From: a virus
Lineage: Duplodnaviria; Heunggongvirae; Uroviricota; Caudoviricetes
Length of the DNA stretch: 6,437 bases
Strand: one strand, 5' to 3'
IMG/VR virus record: IMGVR_UViG_2617270947_000009
The stretch's first letter is position 1, and every line of letters starts with the position of its first letter. The position numbers were made by a program, and so were the translations under genes. The notes under the pieces were generated by a model. The model was not told where the DNA came from and did not search any database. It saw only the letters and a list, made by a program, of their open reading frames with translations. This document shows, one piece after another, positions 387-6,437 of this stretch.

Positions 387-2204
387 GTGGATAAATCCGG
401 CGCAGTCACAGCAGCACAGACTATTACCTCACATGGTGAAAAAAGACTCCTGACAGGTTCGGCAAAGCGGGGGGCATATCACGCCATAAACGCACAGAAA
501 CGACCTCACAGCATCATAATTGCTGAGGGGGTGGCTACCGCCCTGTCGTGCCATTTAATTCGCCCTGACGCAATGACAGTGGCAGCAATCGACGCTGGCA
601 ACCTGTTGCCAGTAGCGGAAGTCATGCGCAGAACATATCCACAGGCACAAATCATCATTGCCGCAGATAACGATCACCAGCAAGGAAACTCCGAAAGTGG
701 AGGGATCAACACGGGGAAAGATGCCGCAGAGAGGGCCGCTATTTCCGTAGCTGGCTGGGTGTCTCTGCCACCGACTGACTATAAAGCCGACTGGAACGAC
801 TATCACCAACAACACGGGCTGGCGGCAGCCACAGCAGCATTTAAAGATTCGATGTACCAGCCACGGGGGAAAGGGGCGCAGGTGAAAAATCACAAACAGT
901 CAGTCGGGGCGCTGAATGAGATCAGTTCTGGCGAGGTGTTAAGCGATGATGAAATTGCTGTCCTCGAAGAAATCAACCGGACGTTTACGCATGTCACCAT
1001 CGGCGGGAAACACAAGGGGGGGTCGCTAAAGCCTTCTCAAAACGGCGGGGTATCGCACCTTTTTGAGGGTTTATCACAATTTCAGCATTATTTTCATCAT
1101 AAACCGAGAGTCGCCAGAAAGCTGGCGGGATCGGCGTGGCTGTCATGGAGTGGGAAGAACTACAAGCCAGGAGGCGTAGGATTTTATCCAGTACCAGACA
1201 AATGCCCTGACGATGTTTTTAATCTGTATGAGGGGCTGGCACTGGAACCAATTGAAGGAGATTGCACGGTATACCTTAATCACCTGTTGCAGGTTGTCTG
1301 TGCCGGTAATGAAGAGGCATACCAATATCTTATCCAGTGGATGGCGCACATTATCCAAAAGCCTGATGAAAAACCGTCCGTGGCAATCGTGATGAAATCT
1401 GTCCCGGGCACAGGGAAAGGCACAACGGTTAAACCGCTGCTGCAAATACTGGGGCAGTACGCCGCCCACATTAACGGGGCGGGACATATTTCAGGGCGCT
1501 TCAATTCAATACTTGCTAACAAACTACTGGTATTTGCTGACGAAGTGACGATCCACAAGCCGTCTGAAGCTGACAGACTTAAAGCGATTATTAGTGAACC
1601 GACGTTTAACCTTGAGCGCAAGGGAATTGATGCTGAACCAATGCCGAATTTTGCCCGGTTGATATTTGCCAGTAACAGCACACAGGTATTACAGGCAGGG
1701 ATAAGAGAGCGTCGCTATCTCGTGCTTGAGCCATCTCCTGAAAAAGCACAGAGCCGGGAGTATTTTGATCGGCTGTACAGTTGGCTTAATGATGGCGGTG
1801 CCGCAAAGTTGCTTTGGCATCTTAAAGGGGTGGATCTCTCAGGTTTTGACCCTCAACGAGCGCCACAGACCGATGCCTTACGTGAAGAAATCTTGCTGGG
1901 GCTGTCTGGCGTTGAATTGTTTCTTTATGGCGAGCTAATCAATGAACCTCCGTTTAATGGCGAAGTCCGTTTGTTTGCAAAGGATATGGTTAGTCGGTTT
2001 GTAGCGTGGTCGCTTGAGCGTGGGGAAAAGCTTAAAGAACCAGCTGCCAGATCACTACTGGGTAAATCACTTGCACAAATGGGGCTGGTGAAGCATGGAA
2101 GACCAGACCGAGGGAATGGCGTGTTCTACGAACTACCAGAGGTCGGAGTTCTACAGGCTGCGTTTGCCCGTCTGATCGGTATGGGGGGTTATGATGTTTT
2201 TTAA
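387..2204 (+). CDS. P4 alpha-type primase/helicase, N-terminally truncated at the IS junction (likely pseudogene or remnant)
   Basis: Toprim motif AEGVATA (E codon at 525-527) and IIIAADNDHQ DxD motif (D codons 666-668 and 672-674); Walker A VPGTGKGT (approx. 1404-1424) and Walker B LLVFADE (approx. 1525-1545). The open frame begins immediately at the IS end (384), with GTG at 387 as first possible start. In P4 alpha the EGYATA motif lies about 170 residues further from the N-terminus, so about 170 aa including the zinc-binding region appear missing. Stop TAA at 2202-2204. Confidence 0.8.
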   Translation: MDKSGAVTAAQTITSHGEKRLLTGSAKRGAYHAINAQKRPHSIIIAEGVATALSCHLIRPDAMTVAAIDAGNLLPVAEVMRRTYPQAQIIIAADNDHQQGNSESGGINTGKDAAERAAISVAGWVSLPPTDYKADWNDYHQQHGLAAATAAFKDSMYQPRGKGAQVKNHKQSVGALNEISSGEVLSDDEIAVLEEINRTFTHVTIGGKHKGGSLKPSQNGGVSHLFEGLSQFQHYFHHKPRVARKLAGSAWLSWSGKNYKPGGVGFYPVPDKCPDDVFNLYEGLALEPIEGDCTVYLNHLLQVVCAGNEEAYQYLIQWMAHIIQKPDEKPSVAIVMKSVPGTGKGTTVKPLLQILGQYAAHINGAGHISGRFNSILANKLLVFADEVTIHKPSEADRLKAIISEPTFNLERKGIDAEPMPNFARLIFASNSTQVLQAGIRERRYLVLEPSPEKAQSREYFDRLYSWLNDGGAAKLLWHLKGVDLSGFDPQRAPQTDALREEILLGLSGVELFLYGELINEPPFNGEVRLFAKDMVSRFVAWSLERGEKLKEPAARSLLGKSLAQMGLVKHGRPDRGNGVFYELPEVGVLQAAFARLIGMGGYDVF

Positions 2205-2233
2205 TATAGTCTTTTTACAAGAAGATCGTTTTT

Positions 2234-2337
2234 ACCTGTACCACCTATACCACTTTGATAATTCAGCATTAAAAACAATGCGTTATAGTGGTACAGGTCA
2301 ATATCTTACCTATACCAGACCTGTACCACCTATACCA
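2234..2337. repeat. Iteron cluster downstream of primase (candidate origin): 19-bp direct repeat ACCTGTACCACCTATACCA at 2234-2252 and 2319-2337, inverted core copy GTGGTACAGGT at 2288-2298, partial copy CCTATACCAG at 2308-2317, flanking an AT-rich stretch (2254-2287)
   Basis: Repeats read directly from the sequence; the arrangement of iterons next to an AT-rich segment just 3' of a primase/helicase gene resembles P4 ori and SaPI/PICI origins. Confidence 0.6.
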
Positions 2338-2380
2338 TTAACAAACGCATTTCTTCTGGCTGGCTGAAAGGGAACAACCA

Positions 2381-2611
2381 ATGATGAGCACACCATTTTA
2401 CAAAGTGCGCCAGTTAGCTTCTTCCTCTGGCTGGCAGCTACGGTTTGAGGGGCGTTCAGACTGGCTACCCATTGCGGCATGGGCGAATGTTGAAATGTGT
2501 ATTGACGGCGATACCGTTGAAATCATTATTCCCTGCGTGGCAAGTCGGGACGGCTGTATAGAGCCAACAGATATGGCAGCAGAAATCAGAGAGGTAAAAC
2601 ATGAACAATAA
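2381..2611 (+). CDS. Hypothetical protein, 76 aa
   Basis: ATG at 2381 preceded by AAAGGG (2368-2373) at appropriate spacing; overlaps the next gene by 11 nt (translational coupling); no family recognised by eye. Confidence 0.55.
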   Translation: MMSTPFYKVRQLASSSGWQLRFEGRSDWLPIAAWANVEMCIDGDTVEIIIPCVASRDGCIEPTDMAAEIREVKHEQ

Positions 2612-3338
2612 CTATTGCATACCGCAGGGAATGACCAGAACGGAGCGCGAAGAATTAAAAAGTTTCGCTACACAGTGCGGGAATGCTGGCGACATCCAAA
2701 GTCTGGAACGCACTTTAATTATGATTACGCACTGGATGCGTCAGGGGCAAAGGGTTTCATTTACTGAATATGCCAGCCAGTGGACAGAGGCACAGCGCGA
2801 ACGGAGCGACGGTAATCACTCAACACCCGAAATGGCGAAGCAATGGCCTTTCAGTGGTAAACGCTGTATCAGTCCCGGTGGTTCAGATTATTACCCTGCT
2901 GGTGTGGGAGATGAGCCATGTTGTGACGAGACTGAAATCCGCCACGCAGTGACAGTAATTACCGCTGAATACCCACAATTTAACCTTGACGGACTGGCGC
3001 TCCACAACCGGAATGCGGACTGGGAAAACCCGCTTGATAACCCGTCATTTATCGTATCGGCGAAAAGCTGCCTGAGATGGATCAGAGACAACGGGATGAG
3101 TAATGCCCAGATTGAGAGCTTCCCGCAGGATAACCCCACATCTGACACGTTGAAGCATGAAGTGGAGCGATATAACCAGATAAACCACCAGCACAGTGAT
3201 CACCCGCACTATATCCCCAACGGAGCATTTATTGCGGCGATGGTGGCAAGCGGCTACAAGGTTAAGCCAGCGGGAAGAATGAACGCATTTTTCAATATTT
3301 CAAAAAAGGGATTATGTGCTGCTATGGGTAAAAATTAA
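2601..3338 (+). CDS. Hypothetical protein, 245 aa
   Basis: ATG at 2601 preceded by GAGAGG (2588-2593); open frame to TAA at 3336-3338; ORF of this length in the same orientation as neighbours; no recognisable catalytic motif. Confidence 0.6.
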   Translation: MNNNYCIPQGMTRTEREELKSFATQCGNAGDIQSLERTLIMITHWMRQGQRVSFTEYASQWTEAQRERSDGNHSTPEMAKQWPFSGKRCISPGGSDYYPAGVGDEPCCDETEIRHAVTVITAEYPQFNLDGLALHNRNADWENPLDNPSFIVSAKSCLRWIRDNGMSNAQIESFPQDNPTSDTLKHEVERYNQINHQHSDHPHYIPNGAFIAAMVASGYKVKPAGRMNAFFNISKKGLCAAMGKN

Positions 3339-3343
3339 ATAAA

Positions 3344-3447
3344 TGGTACAGGTCTGTACAGGTGGGGAGAGGTCATTTTTACCCACCTGTACCACCTGCA
3401 GGCCGCGTCACAAAAGGGTTTGTGACATGGTGGTACAGGTGGTACAG
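3344..3447. repeat. Second iteron cluster with the same core (CCTGTACCACC / GGTGGTACAGG): GGTACAGGT 3345-3353, TGTACAGGTGG 3355-3365, CACCTGTACCACCTG 3384-3398, GGTGGTACAGGTGGTACAG 3429-3447; the last two form an inverted repeat around the palindrome at 3407-3426
   Basis: Read directly from the sequence; same core motif as the 2234-2337 cluster, present in both orientations. Confidence 0.6.
3407..3426. promoter_or_regulatory. Perfect palindrome GTCACAAA-AGGG-TTTGTGAC (8-bp arms, 4-nt spacer) nested between inverted iterons; candidate protein-binding site
   Basis: Exact reverse-complement arms at 3407-3414 and 3419-3426; not followed by a T-run, so unlikely to be a terminator. Confidence 0.4.
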
Positions 3448-3611
3448 CAAAAACAGCGATTTTCTTTATAAGGTTTTATAAGGTATGTTTTGCTCATCTG
3501 GCAGACGGAGGTATTCGCTGCGGTTTGGCACATAGCCCAGAACAGCAAAGAGTTTTACGAGACTTTTGTAAAATCCAGTGTACAAGGGCGTGACGTTTTT
3601 GAAGGAGGGAC

Positions 3612-3628
3612 CTACGAAATTTTCGTAG
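3612..3628. promoter_or_regulatory. 17-bp perfect palindrome CTACGAAA-T-TTTCGTAG; candidate operator
   Basis: Arms 3612-3619 and 3621-3628 are exact reverse complements; AT-rich centre; preceded by a GAAGGAGGG stretch (3601-3609) with no start codon following. Confidence 0.35.
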
Positions 3629-3822
3629 TTCAAAAAATAGCCTCTGAGATGTTGTTATGCCTGTTCAGCAAACCATCCGCATAGCTGATCGCGAATCAAA
3701 TTACCAATGGAGCCAGAAGCAAGGGCAGAACTGGAAAGCGCCTGCCGTGAAGAGTAATGCGACATCGTAAATATAGTTTTTAGAGTCCATAAAAAAACTG
3801 TCAAAACCTGACATACAGAACG

Positions 3823-3855
3823 ATGCCACCAGCTACTGAACGGTGGCATTTTTTT
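3823..3855 (+). terminator. Rho-independent terminator (8-bp GC-rich stem ATGCCACC/GGTGGCAT, 11-nt loop, run of 7 T)
   Basis: Stem 3823-3830 pairs with 3842-3849; T-run 3849-3855; orientation fits + strand transcription only. Confidence 0.6.
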
Positions 3856-3874
3856 GTGCTATTTGTTTCATATT

Positions 3875-3917
3875 TTGCAATCACAATGATGAATGTTGCG
3901 TTTTATGAAACTATAAT
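3875..3917 (+). promoter_or_regulatory. Putative promoter for the downstream operon: consensus -10 TATAAT at 3912-3917; no good -35 at 16-18 bp spacing (TTGCAA at 3875-3880 is 31 bp upstream)
   Basis: Perfect -10 hexamer 34 nt upstream of the 3951 start codon and downstream of the terminator; the lack of a -35 suggests activator dependence or a misplaced call. Confidence 0.35.
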
Positions 3918-3950
3918 GACTGTTGTTTTATACAGTTCTAAGGGGGCGTT

Positions 3951-4124
3951 ATGGCTATTTCAGTAAAGCCAGTATTGATAAGTGAGAAGCAAATGGAAGC
4001 GATAAAGAAAATTCAGGAGGAGCAGCGTAAAAAATCAGAGGTAGGAGTTGCGCCAACGATCCACGAAATTGCTCGGGGATTAATGGATAAGGCGCTGGCT
4101 TACACTTTAACTGGACGTGGGTAA
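3951..4124 (+). CDS. Small hypothetical protein, 57 aa (MAISVKPVLISEKQMEAIKKIQEEQRKKSEVGVAPTIHEIARGLMDKALAYTLTGRG); possible small DNA-binding (ribbon-helix-helix-like) protein; absent from the supplied ORF track
   Basis: ATG at 3951 preceded by a strong Shine-Dalgarno AAGGGGG (3940-3946); stop TAA at 4122-4124, 4 nt before the ATG of the next gene; predicted strand-helix-turn-helix layout is inferred by eye only. Confidence 0.55.
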   Translation: MAISVKPVLISEKQMEAIKKIQEEQRKKSEVGVAPTIHEIARGLMDKALAYTLTGRG

Positions 4125-4128
4125 ATCA

Positions 4129-5595
4129 ATGGCTACGTGGCAACAGGGTATTAATTCTGGTGGTTTTCTGGCTGGCATCGGTACGCAAAATGAGAATGCG
4201 CCAAAGGCAAGCGACATTAACGCAACGCTTGGTCTGATCCGCGAAAACAATGAACTGGCTCGATCAGGTGCAAATAACGTTGCTCTGACAGGTCTTCGTG
4301 GTCTGGCTGGAGTTGCTGATATTTATAAGCAGCAGCAACAGCAGGAGCGTAAAGCGGCATTCCAGAAAGGTTATGCAGATGCTTATGCGTCCGGTGACAG
4401 GGAGCAGATGCGTAATCTTATTACAGCATTCCCAGAAGAGTTTGAGGAAGTCCGTAAAGGGATGAGTTATGTCGATGATGCTCAAAGGGATGATTATGGC
4501 AATCTGGCGCTCAAAGCACAGGTAGCCTCATCGCTTGGTCAGGGCGCATTTGGCAGGTTCATGATGGATAATGAGCAGGAGATGCGTCGTTTAGGTATCC
4601 CTCCAGAAACTATTGCTGAAATGCAGGTTAATGACCCGCAGGGCTTCCAGCATTTCGCAGGTAATCTGGCGCTGTTTTCTCTCGGTCATGAGAAGTATTT
4701 CGATATCAAAGATCAAATGGAAGGTCGGGATATTGAACGTGGCAAGTTGGCAGAGACAATCCGCAGCAATCAGGCCAGCGAAGCACTTCAGGCGAGAGGG
4801 CAGGATATTAGCCGAGCAAATGCGTTAACGTCAGCATATGCACCAACAGCAGCAATGCAGAATTACAATCAGTACGCTCAAATGTTAAAGGCGGATCCAG
4901 AGGGGGCGGCGGCATTTGCGGCAGCGGCTGGAATTAATACAAACGCCAAAAAATTAATGAGTGTTAGAGAAAACGATGATGGCACTGTCACAAAATACTA
5001 CACAGACGGAAGTGAAGAGCAGGGAAAACTAAACCAGCCAATATCTGGAGATGGGTTTCGTCCAATAGCTTTGCCAACAGCCCAAAAGATCATGGAAAAG
5101 TCGCCAGAAGGGGCTAAAAAAGCTGCTGGATTTGCATACAGAGTTAGGGATGCTCTTGATTCAATGGATACACTGAAAGGCCAGCTTAGCCCACAGCGAG
5201 TGGCGATCATTAATAATGCTTTGGGTAATGGGACGCTGGCTAACTTAACGCTCACCCCAACAGAGCAGCAATACGTTGTTAATGCTAATGACGCAATAAT
5301 GGCAATACTCCGTCAGGAAACAGGGGCAGCTATCGTACCTGCTGAAATGTCAAAATATTATCAAATGTATTTCCCTCAGCCTGGCGACTCCACAAAAACC
5401 ATTGATACCAAGCGCCGGAAGATGGAAAACCAGTTCAATTCGCTGAAAGCTGCTTCTGGTCGAGCTTATGATGCTTTGCGGGTTATTTCAGCAGTTGACA
5501 GAGGGACTTCTTCTTCGTCGCAGACATTGCCGCAATCTGAGCAGGTATCACAGCCAGCAGCCAGCAGTAATTTTTCTTCACTATGGGGTGATTAA
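4129..5595 (+). CDS. Hypothetical protein, about 488 aa (492 aa if the GTG at 4117 is used); Ala/Gln/Gly-rich, low complexity with a QQQQQ run, no catalytic motif recognised
   Basis: Long uninterrupted frame; ATG at 4129 closely follows the upstream stop; stop TAA at 5593-5595 overlaps the next start (TAATG); the composition is the kind seen in phage scaffold, ejection or tape-measure-like proteins, but the family is not identified. Confidence 0.65.
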   Translation: MATWQQGINSGGFLAGIGTQNENAPKASDINATLGLIRENNELARSGANNVALTGLRGLAGVADIYKQQQQQERKAAFQKGYADAYASGDREQMRNLITAFPEEFEEVRKGMSYVDDAQRDDYGNLALKAQVASSLGQGAFGRFMMDNEQEMRRLGIPPETIAEMQVNDPQGFQHFAGNLALFSLGHEKYFDIKDQMEGRDIERGKLAETIRSNQASEALQARGQDISRANALTSAYAPTAAMQNYNQYAQMLKADPEGAAAFAAAAGINTNAKKLMSVRENDDGTVTKYYTDGSEEQGKLNQPISGDGFRPIALPTAQKIMEKSPEGAKKAAGFAYRVRDALDSMDTLKGQLSPQRVAIINNALGNGTLANLTLTPTEQQYVVNANDAIMAILRQETGAAIVPAEMSKYYQMYFPQPGDSTKTIDTKRRKMENQFNSLKAASGRAYDALRVISAVDRGTSSSSQTLPQSEQVSQPAASSNFSSLWGD

Positions 5596-6011
5596 TGGCT
5601 AAAGCATGGAAAGATGTTATCGCCTCTCCACAGTATCAGGCGTTAGCACCAGAACAAAAAGCGCAGGCTCAGGAGCAATACTTCAATGAAGTCGTGGCCC
5701 CGCAAGCCGGAGAAAGTGTAGCGCAGGCTAAGCAGGCTTTTTATGCTGCCTATCCACTACCATCAACGAATGAAATAGACCGATCCCAATCAGCAACTCA
5801 AAATATTCAACATACATCATCTGATAATTCTCTTGCGTCAGGGTATGCAAAGTTAGCGACTCAGCAAAGAGAGGGGCTTGAGCGTTCAGCAGAACAGGGA
5901 GCCAGTCTTGGGGCTGCGATGCGCGATGCTATAACAGGCGAAAGCCGAATGACTCCAGAGATGGAGAGACTGCAAAATGTCGACCTTGCCCCAGAGTTAA
6001 CCTCACTCTGA
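5595..6011 (+). CDS. Hypothetical protein, 138 aa as it stands; probably C-terminally truncated, because the stop codon TGA (6009-6011) is the first three bases of the IS terminus
   Basis: ATG at 5595 overlaps the preceding stop (translational coupling); the last native codon ends at 6008 and the IS end TGAACCGCCCCGG begins at 6009. Confidence 0.55.
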   Translation: MAKAWKDVIASPQYQALAPEQKAQAQEQYFNEVVAPQAGESVAQAKQAFYAAYPLPSTNEIDRSQSATQNIQHTSSDNSLASGYAKLATQQREGLERSAEQGASLGAAMRDAITGESRMTPEMERLQNVDLAPELTSL

Positions 6012-6437
6012 ACCGCCCCGGGTTTCCTGGAGAGTGTTTTATCTGTGAACTCAGGCTGCCAGATCATCGTTTCCGATGGAAGCATAATAAGCTTTTTCTG
6101 CTTCTGCCGGAGGAGTATGGCCCAGCCTTTCCAGCAATCGTCGATTGTTATACCAGTCCACCCACGTGAGTGTGGCCAGTTCCACTTCTGCACGGTTTTT
6201 CCAGCTCTTACGGTGTATTACCTCCGCTTTGTAAAGACCATTGATGCTCTCCGCCATCGCGTTGTCATACGAGTCGCCTGTACTTCCTGTTGATGCCAGT
6301 AATCCGGCTTCCTTAAGCCGCTGTGTGTAGGCCAGCGATACATACTGAGAACCTTTATCACTGTGATGGACCGTGCCGGACGGTCGACGGGCCCATAACG
6401 CCTGCTCCAGTGCATCCAGCACGAATGTCGTTTCCAT
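6009..6437 (-). mobile_element. Partial IS3-family insertion sequence, second copy in inverted orientation (terminal repeat plus 3' part of transposase gene); continues beyond the window end
   Basis: 6009-6391 is the reverse complement of 1-383, with two mismatches found by eye (6022 and 6074); terminal sequence TGAACCGCCCCGGGTTTCCTGG at 6009-6030. Confidence 0.85.
6051..6437 (-). CDS. IS3-family transposase OrfB (DDE integrase domain), C-terminal portion; 5'-partial at window edge
   Basis: Translation ...RRPSGTVHHSDKGSQYVSLAYTQRLKEAGLLASTGSTGDSYDNAMAESINGLYKAEVIH...ASIGNDDLAA matches the copy at 1-341 except one residue (G vs R); stop (TCA on + strand) at 6051-6053. Confidence 0.85.
   Translation of the reverse strand: METTFVLDALEQALWARRPSGTVHHSDKGSQYVSLAYTQRLKEAGLLASTGSTGDSYDNAMAESINGLYKAEVIHRKSWKNRAEVELATLTWVDWYNNRRLLERLGHTPPAEAEKAYYASIGNDDLAA

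Follow-up and report, generated by a model that had tools for sequence, protein, structure and literature searches.

The window examined here is a stretch of 6,437 nucleotides from the IMG/VR virus record IMGVR_UViG_2617270947_000009. It contains the gene for a primase-helicase, the presumed replication initiator, followed by two separate clusters of a short repeated motif (iteron). The question raised by this locus is what the second cluster does, since it lies about 1.1 kb beyond the first. A first-pass annotation made from the letters alone described inverted repeats around a perfect palindrome and offered two interpretations: that the two clusters mirror the origin (ori) and crr of phage P4, or that the second cluster is an operator for the genes on either side. 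The window is a fragment, bracketed by IS3 insertion sequences (IS), of an island resembling EcCIMP1, a phage-inducible chromosomal island (PICI). On the strength of its sequence features and of the analogy with P4, the second cluster is probably a crr-like second initiator-binding array of a bipartite P4-type origin in this EcCIMP1-like PICI. The shared motif, the mirror geometry, the conservation with one primase type, the loss or decay where that primase type is missing and the geometric match to P4 are observed. Binding by the primase, a positive role in replication and looping between the clusters are suggested by the P4 precedent.

The second iteron cluster

Cluster 2 consists of CTGTACC-type iterons in both orientations (3342-3447) and has the following parts.

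3342-3352, minus strand: leftmost iteron, CCTGTACCATT, core GGTACAG at 3345-3351
3353-3365, minus strand: degenerate second iteron, CCACCTGTACAGA
3383-3396, plus strand: iteron CCACCTGTACCACC, core at 3387-3393, left arm of a 14-nt perfect inverted repeat
3394-3431, no strand: spacer of 38 nt, 45% A+T, with a GGCCGCG box at 3401-3407 and the centre AAAGGGTTT at 3413-3421
3407-3426, no strand: perfect palindrome GTCACAAA-AGGG-TTTGTGAC, a derived state found in the window copy only
3429-3447, minus strand: tandem iteron pair GGTGGTACA GGTGGTACA G, cores at 3432-3438 and 3441-3447, 9 nt apart
3448-3464, no strand: A-run/T-run flank CAAAAACAGCGATTTTC, conserved in L018, L027, L031, L034, L099 and L100

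The motif CACCTGTACCACC occupies 3384-3396, and 3429-3441 is its reverse complement. A repeat search gives 14-nt arms (3383-3396 and 3429-3442) that are 100% complementary with 32 nt between them. The coordinates given by the first-pass annotation for these motifs and for the palindrome are exact, and the recurrence of the core in both orientations was borne out; the cluster holds further iterons at 3342-3352 and 3353-3365 and a second member of the tandem minus pair at 3429-3447. The iteron consensus is (A)CCTRTACCA(C). With up to two mismatches, CCTGTACCACC has 12 matches against 1.19 expected, a number reached in 0 of 200 shuffles. Exact CTGTACC occurs 7 times on the two strands against 0.77 expected (maximum 5 in 1000 shuffles), and all seven cores are confined to 2236-2327 or 3345-3447, with none elsewhere in the window.

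The cores are the stable part of the cluster. Among 8 Escherichia coli copies the 7-mer cores, that of the leftmost iteron included, are invariant, and all 10 variable positions of cluster 2 fall outside them. A counterpart of the leftmost minus-strand iteron is found in L007, L008, L009, L011, L014 and L015. L095 has G in place of T3355, which turns the degenerate second iteron into a canonical GGTACAG, and Buttiauxella L007 has two minus-strand iterons there. The plus-strand iteron sits 44-45 nt from the minus pair in nine relatives too, and the spacer is 37-38 nt in 10 of 11 pattern-matched loci (28 nt in L014). Within the spacer, a GCCGCG box and a GG(G/C)TT centre are semi-conserved, being common to L015, L034, L099 and L100; the Xenorhabdus spacer is AT-rich, unlike the E. 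coli version with its GCCGCG box. The best-conserved part of cluster 2 across relatives is the tandem minus pair, in the form GGTACAG-NN-GGKACAG. DNA downstream of the cluster (3448-3510) is 63% A+T. Just past the flank, a 10-bp tandem duplication, TTTATAAGGT TTTATAAGGT at 3465-3484, is private to the window copy; the seven other E. coli copies have a single unit.

A mirror-image unit shared by the two clusters

The first cluster lies directly behind the primase gene and has more iterons.

2234-2337, plus strand: cluster 1, ori-like, + + (34-nt run, 76% A+T) - + + +

Its CTRTACC cores are at 2236, 2245, 2290 (minus strand), 2310, 2321 and 2330. Cluster 1 begins 30 nt past the primase stop codon and cluster 2 begins 1138 nt past it. 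Both contain the same unit in opposite orientations: two iterons 9 nt apart face a convergent third across a 38-nt spacer, with an offset of 45 nt. The strand pattern is + + - + + (+) in cluster 1 and - (-) + - - in cluster 2. The tandem pair at 3429-3447 corresponds, inverted, to the cluster-1 pair (2234-2252), and the flank CAAAAACAGCGATTTTC mirrors the TTTTTA that precedes that pair; together, the iteron pair and its T-run or A-run flank form an inverted repeat (2230-2253 versus 3430-3453). The plus-to-minus offset is 43-46 nt in most relatives, L014 being shorter and a second unit in L031 measuring 42 nt.

The composition of the spacer tells cluster 1 from cluster 2 in most lineages. In E. 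coli the A+T fraction is 0.74 in cluster 1 versus 0.45 in cluster 2 (the window mean is 52%), in Buttiauxella L007 0.68 versus 0.38, and in Methylobacter 0.67 versus 0.24. In Xenorhabdus the two are alike (0.82-0.87 and 0.84-0.89).

Comparison with the ori and crr of P4

The P4 record (L021) labels crr as "cis required region for replication" and annotates type 1 repeats in both ori and crr. The P4 iterons were mapped in the orientation of the alpha gene and compared with those of the window, with positions relative to the first iteron of each array.

P4 ori: + + (35-nt spacer, 83% A+T) - + + +; 0+, 10+, 53-, 75+, 86+, 96+
Window cluster 1: 0+, 9+, 54-, 74+, 85+, 94+; spacer about 75% A+T
Each P4 crr repeat: - + + (35-nt spacer) - -; 0-, 14+, 32+, 75-, 84-, then A8..T6
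Window cluster 2: 0-, (10-), 42+, 87-, 96-, then CAAAAACAGCGATTTTC

The offset is 43 nt in P4 ori and in both crr repeats. As in P4, a single short iteron builds both clusters, which are separate and run in opposite overall directions. Each cluster combines a pair of iterons spaced by about 9-10 nt with a convergent iteron on the far side of a 35-38-nt spacer. In both systems this spacer is AT-rich in the ori unit, and the crr unit closes with two inverted iterons at 9-nt spacing and then an A-run and a T-run. The crr of P4 lies 3' of the initiator gene, and so does cluster 2, which in the window is 1.1 kb off, past cluster 1, orf76 and orf245; in two relatives the crr-like unit begins closer to the primase stop, 59 nt past it in L018 and 338 nt past it in L008. 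The initiators share Zn-ribbon, Toprim and DUF5906 domains. The proposal that the two clusters mirror the P4 layout is therefore supported by strand pattern, geometry and conservation with the primase type.

There are also differences. The iteron is CTRTACC(A) here whereas the P4 type I iteron is TGTTCACC. Both window clusters follow the primase gene and are separated by two genes, whereas P4 ori is 4.7 kb upstream of the alpha stop; a P4-like split of the clusters does occur in the relatives L008 and L018. The host element is a PICI with P22-type ejection proteins and not a P2-dependent P4-like satellite. The ori and crr of P4 are long known; the probable counterpart described here, with its variably spaced halves, would add a PICI replicon family to the elements with a two-part origin of this kind.

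Conservation and linkage to the primase type

In the following list CTGTACC cores are numbered from the primase stop codon, each with its strand, and the percentage is the primase identity.

Window: cluster 1, 32+ 86- 117+; cluster 2, 1141- 1183+ 1228- 1237-
Buttiauxella L007 (64%): cluster 1, 44+ 89- 120+ 130+; cluster 2, 1187- 1206- 1238+ 1282-
Xenorhabdus L009 and L011 (50%): cluster 1, 30+ 75- 105+ 116+; cluster 2, 413- 453+ 498- 507-
Buttiauxella L014 (49%): cluster 1, 291+ 336- 367+; cluster 2, 418- 475- 484-
Xenorhabdus ehlersii L008 (54%): cluster 1, -4600+ -4591+ -4546- -4516+ -4505+; cluster 2, 338- 379+ 424- 433-
Methylobacter L018 (52%): cluster 1, -6776+ -6767+ -6724- -6682+; cluster 2, 59+ 144+ 188- 197-

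Paired clusters accompany this primase type in about ten lineages, down to about 50% primase identity, and lineages with both clusters include E. coli, Raoultella, Buttiauxella, Xenorhabdus, Methylobacter and IMG/VR contigs. In Raoultella L099 (primase 72%) both clusters lie around orf76 and orf245 as in E. coli. In the IMG/VR contigs L027-L034 the two clusters directly adjoin, except in L032, which has cluster 1 only. The inter-cluster distance thus ranges from adjacent through 0.3 kb and 1.1 kb up to 4.6 and 6.8 kb across the primase gene. The base that precedes the core covaries by lineage in both clusters: in E. coli 9 of 10 iterons have C there, and in Xenorhabdus 8 of 8 have T or A.

In X. 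ehlersii L008 the ori-like cluster (3686-3790) is found between the genes for AntA and Ash, 4.6 kb ahead of the primase stop, and the crr-like cluster alone follows the primase, a P4-like split; in Methylobacter L018 the split is 6.8 kb.

In a survey of 5426 complete E. coli genomes, at least 130 of which contain the replicon family, the segment 2190-3560 is found in 130 genomes and cluster 2 in 130, versus 495 for the region past about 3550. The distribution of cluster 2 thus follows the primase type and not the downstream genes. Islands with the other primase type (TOPRIM plus DUF927), L002 and EcCIMP1 itself (L098), showed no second cluster. They have one compact origin, at 8840-8960 in L002, with three copies of GGTTCAGTT, an AT-rich stretch and three copies of TGAACCAAC. 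L100, a natural control, has an orf245 homolog behind a foreign replicon with GTGAGGAG iterons, and there cluster 2 is a relic that retains spacer and flank and has lost every CTGTACC core. Comparison across related islands, which the first-pass annotation had put forward as a check, finds the paired layout kept to about 50% primase identity and gone with the other primase type. Replication modules are exchanged as cassettes among otherwise similar islands. A further element, L101, has several clusters of GAGACCAC at 2130-2500.

Presumed initiator and proposed two-part origin

387-2204, plus strand: primase-helicase gene, Pfam Toprim_3 and DUF5906, 5' end cut by an IS3-family insertion

The full-length form of the primase, in L003, has 783 amino acids (aa) and adds Zn_Ribbon_Prim. 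Zn_Ribbon_Prim, Toprim_3 and DUF5906 are common to this protein and to P4 alpha (777 aa), in the same order and at matching positions. BLASTP finds 33% identity to alpha over the N-terminal 335 aa (E 9e-41), and hhalign aligns the N-terminal 310 residues with a probability of 100%. The shared domains and the N-terminal identity suggest that the primase works like alpha in its domain plan. The C-terminal 150 aa are predicted to be winged-helix-like (predicted local distance difference test score, pLDDT, 85.8).

In the proposed mechanism, the initiator (a Zn-ribbon/Toprim primase with a DUF5906 helicase of superfamily 3 (SF3) type and a winged-helix-like C-terminus) would recognise CTRTACC(A) iterons phased at 9 bp. 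Cluster 1 (2234-2337) would be the melting unit, in which an iteron pair and a convergent iteron surround a spacer of 76% A+T. Cluster 2, the reversed unit with a spacer that is not AT-rich, would be a second array of sites for the same initiator. Contacts between the arrays may loop out the intervening 1.1 kb and stabilise or activate the initiation complex. In P4, contacts between ori and crr through alpha protein, with looping, have been reported.

Several findings weigh against this assignment. The window has a single crr-like unit without a 120-bp direct repeat, placed 1.1 kb downstream, whereas P4 crr has two 120-bp repeats, the first of them 51 nt past alpha; a single repeat is said to be enough in P4. 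For the C-terminal half of the primase, unlike the N-terminal half, neither BLASTP nor hhalign gives an alignment with alpha; the primase has no Pfam match to D5_N or Pox_D5, and the P4 origin-binding domain 1KA8 is missing from both fold-search lists for the C-terminal model. L012 and L032 have cluster 1 and no recognisable cluster 2, which means that cluster 2 may be dispensable or that these two elements are defective. Furthermore, cluster 1 alone satisfies the published pattern for PICI origins. In PICIs and Staphylococcus aureus pathogenicity islands (SaPIs), iteron sets flank an AT-rich region immediately 3' of pri-rep, and the origin is described as a single iteron/AT-rich block beside rep with no second element (PMC6092414). 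Cluster 1 has exactly this form (iterons, AT-rich spacer, immediately 3' of the primase gene), whereas cluster 2 is a separate array at 1138 nt from the primase gene with a spacer of 45% A+T. The EcCIMP1 study contains no origin analysis (PMC11773190).

The bipartite reading may also be taken further. The clusters could be two halves of one split helicase-loading site, each loading one initiator oligomer and joined by looping, so that a distance-independent split origin would be ancestral for alpha-type primase-helicases in both the P4 and the PICI lineage. This version is unlikely, but it would explain why the halves can be adjacent or up to 6.8 kb apart and why orf76 and orf245 are nested in the loop.

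If cluster 2 is crr-like, the two-part origin would link the replication modules of P4-like satellites and PICIs, and minimal replicons with the primase and cluster 1 only may replicate poorly. The relatives provide a natural spacing series, from 0 to 6.8 kb, for studying how alpha-type initiators communicate between distant sites.

Alternative roles for the second cluster

The sequence does not separate a positive from a negative role of cluster 2, which weighs against the crr-like assignment as well. Cluster 2 could thus be a copy-control or incompatibility array like P1 incA or F incC, limiting firing by titration or handcuffing. In those plasmids too, a second cluster beyond the initiator gene repeats iterons of the origin type, and the lack of cluster 2 in two relatives is what would be expected of a dispensable control locus. 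However, the initiator here is a primase-helicase and not of the RepA/RepE type, cluster 2 is no plain array but mirrors the origin core with exact 45-nt phasing, like P4 crr, and P4 crr is annotated as required for replication. A brake is also of little obvious use to a satellite that amplifies fast after induction, and a control array is improbable. There is a similarly small chance that cluster 2 is itself the initiation site, a true or second origin whose convergent iterons load a pair of helicases, with cluster 1 as the auxiliary. The same convergent unit is present in both clusters, in Xenorhabdus the spacers of both clusters are equally AT-rich (0.84-0.89 in cluster 2), the flank past cluster 2 is A/T-rich (63% A+T at 3448-3510), and the single origin of the sister islands sits at the place of cluster 2, just before the conserved downstream region. 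Against this, E. coli, Buttiauxella and Methylobacter have GC-rich spacers in cluster 2 (A+T 0.45, 0.38 and 0.24 versus 0.67-0.74 in cluster 1), and it is cluster 1 that is richer in iterons and agrees with P4 ori at every point.

The operator proposed by the first-pass annotation for the genes on either side is disfavoured. In this explanation, bound initiator would act as an operator or transcriptional roadblock that controls read-through from orf76 and orf245 into the leader and the ejection genes. Cluster 2 is indeed intergenic, between orf245 and the conserved leader at 3550-3960, and inverted repeats are typical of operators. However, a scan of 2150-4150 for sigma-70 promoters and terminators predicted neither at cluster 2, and no sigma-70-like promoter in or beside it. 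Furthermore, the flanking genes vary while the architecture is constant (orf245 precedes cluster 2 in E. coli, follows it in X. ehlersii and adjoins cluster 1 elsewhere), and the cluster is absent from islands with the same downstream genes but the other primase, making an operator very unlikely.

The palindrome at 3407-3426 could in principle be the functional centre (a hairpin, a cruciform or a site for a dimeric protein) with the iterons merely flanking it. An 8-bp perfect stem within the 38-nt spacer has a chance of about 0.006 (the whole-window shuffle rate, scaled), and the changes C3408T and C3413A each improve pairing, with a 7/8 intermediate in L097. The first-pass annotation was correct that iterons and palindrome are both present as placed; the palindrome, which it emphasised, lies outside the conserved design and is private to the window copy. 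Five other E. coli copies read GCCACACA..TTTGTGAC with 6/8 arm pairs, and a sixth, L024, reads GCTACACA with poorer pairing than 6/8; all six fit GC(C/T)ACACA..TTTGTGAC. L097 reads GTCACACA (7/8 arm pairs), and L095 is less symmetric still. T3408 and A3413 of the window copy are unique or rare, and none of the 130 E. coli genomes is exact to the window there, the best being 99.0% identical over the first 99 nt of the 115-nt query. The window has 3 perfect inverted repeats (stem at least 8, loop at most 10) versus 0.95 in shuffles, so that the palindrome by itself says little.

Folding against shuffles covered both P4 crr repeats and 15 spacers of the family, four of which are E. coli alleles. 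The z value is -2.7 for the window and +0.5 for the majority allele, and the other spacers, including P4 crr, range from -1.6 to +0.9; a conserved hairpin was rejected, as the folding singles out the window copy alone. An intrinsic terminator at 3407-3426 was rejected as well, the scan being negative and the stem being followed by ATGGTGG and no T-run. The window copy is moreover a dead, IS-truncated fragment under relaxed selection, in which such a change is unsurprising. A functional palindrome is extremely improbable; the perfect palindrome is a recent quirk private to the window copy and outside the mechanism. The two stepwise pairing-improving changes could have come from quasi-palindrome correction by template switching, a known mutational process that requires no function. 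A conspicuous perfect palindrome can thus be a recent mutational product without a conserved role.

Island context and neighbouring genes

1-383 and 6011-6437: IS3-family 3' end in two inverted copies, 2 mismatches between copies, bracketing the island fragment
2381-2611 and 2601-3338, plus strand: orf76 and orf245, the genes between the two clusters

The order between the IS copies is cluster 1, orf76, orf245, cluster 2, a leader of about 400 bp, orf57 and a P22 gp20-like gene. The IS3 copies cost the primase gene its first 178 codons, and the gp16-like gene keeps 138 codons only. The island copy in the window is degraded and dead, and its own replication is ruled out; as the primase is IS-truncated, this copy cannot fire unless primase is supplied in trans. 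Family and fold searches with orf76 and orf245 assigned none. Both genes move with this replicon, their X. ehlersii homologs being 45% and 44% identical, and there the order is primase, orf76, cluster 2, orf245.

The intact E. coli relatives L001 and L003 are inserted between yicC and dinD. Their order is int, a helix-turn-helix (HTH) gene of the AlpA type, AntA/B, DUF4222, Ash, primase, ejection-protein genes and PerC. This order is shared with L002 and EcCIMP1 (L098), which places the family among EcCIMP1-like PICIs, the window itself spanning only the part from primase to ejection genes. The order int, alpA, ..., primase, ..., PerC is like that of Gram-negative PICIs. Experiments have confirmed EcCIMP1 as a PICI and shown that the P22-like phage Kapi1 mobilises it (PMC11773190). 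The P22-type DNA ejection genes of the window (4117-6011) are a gp20-like gene (Pfam Inj_translocase, E 4e-83) and the start of a gp16-like/transglycosylase gene; intact relatives additionally have DUF2824 and gp7-like genes. The presence of these genes is consistent with a P22-like helper as for EcCIMP1.

Upstream of orf57 and the ejection genes is the leader (3550-3960), which is non-coding, about 400 bp long and 94-97% identical among the matches listed. It is kept in about 495 E. coli genomes irrespective of primase type. At 3832-3855 it carries a hairpin and T-run resembling a terminator, and at 3922-3927 a TATAAT without a -35 box; the leader may be a regulated point of entry into the late genes. 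It has no Rfam match, and a scan of the whole window with E up to 1 gave none either, so a structured RNA is not indicated. The possibility that the region 3450-3960 is a captured phage late-promoter region was rejected, since a blastn search against 50,697 phage records returned short irrelevant matches only.

Over-represented octamers

The octamer CTGGCTGG(C) is strongly enriched in this satellite family and occurs in the window at 751, 2356, 2427, 2773 (minus strand), 4168 and 4303. These 6 occurrences compare with 0.24 expected, and L007 has 14 against 0.58 expected, each number being reached in 0 of 200 shuffles. The octamer is also present in L003, L099, L101 and L002, in several reading frames and in intergenic DNA. 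In L001 there are 7 in the 10-kb island versus 2 in 15 kb of chromosomal flank, and P4 has 1. TTTCTGGCTGGC lies directly past cluster 1, and the same 12-mer is found reverse-complemented in Xenorhabdus; CACCTGGCTGGC lies directly past the L002 origin. Chi (GCTGGTGG) is the commonest 8-mer in several of these islands.

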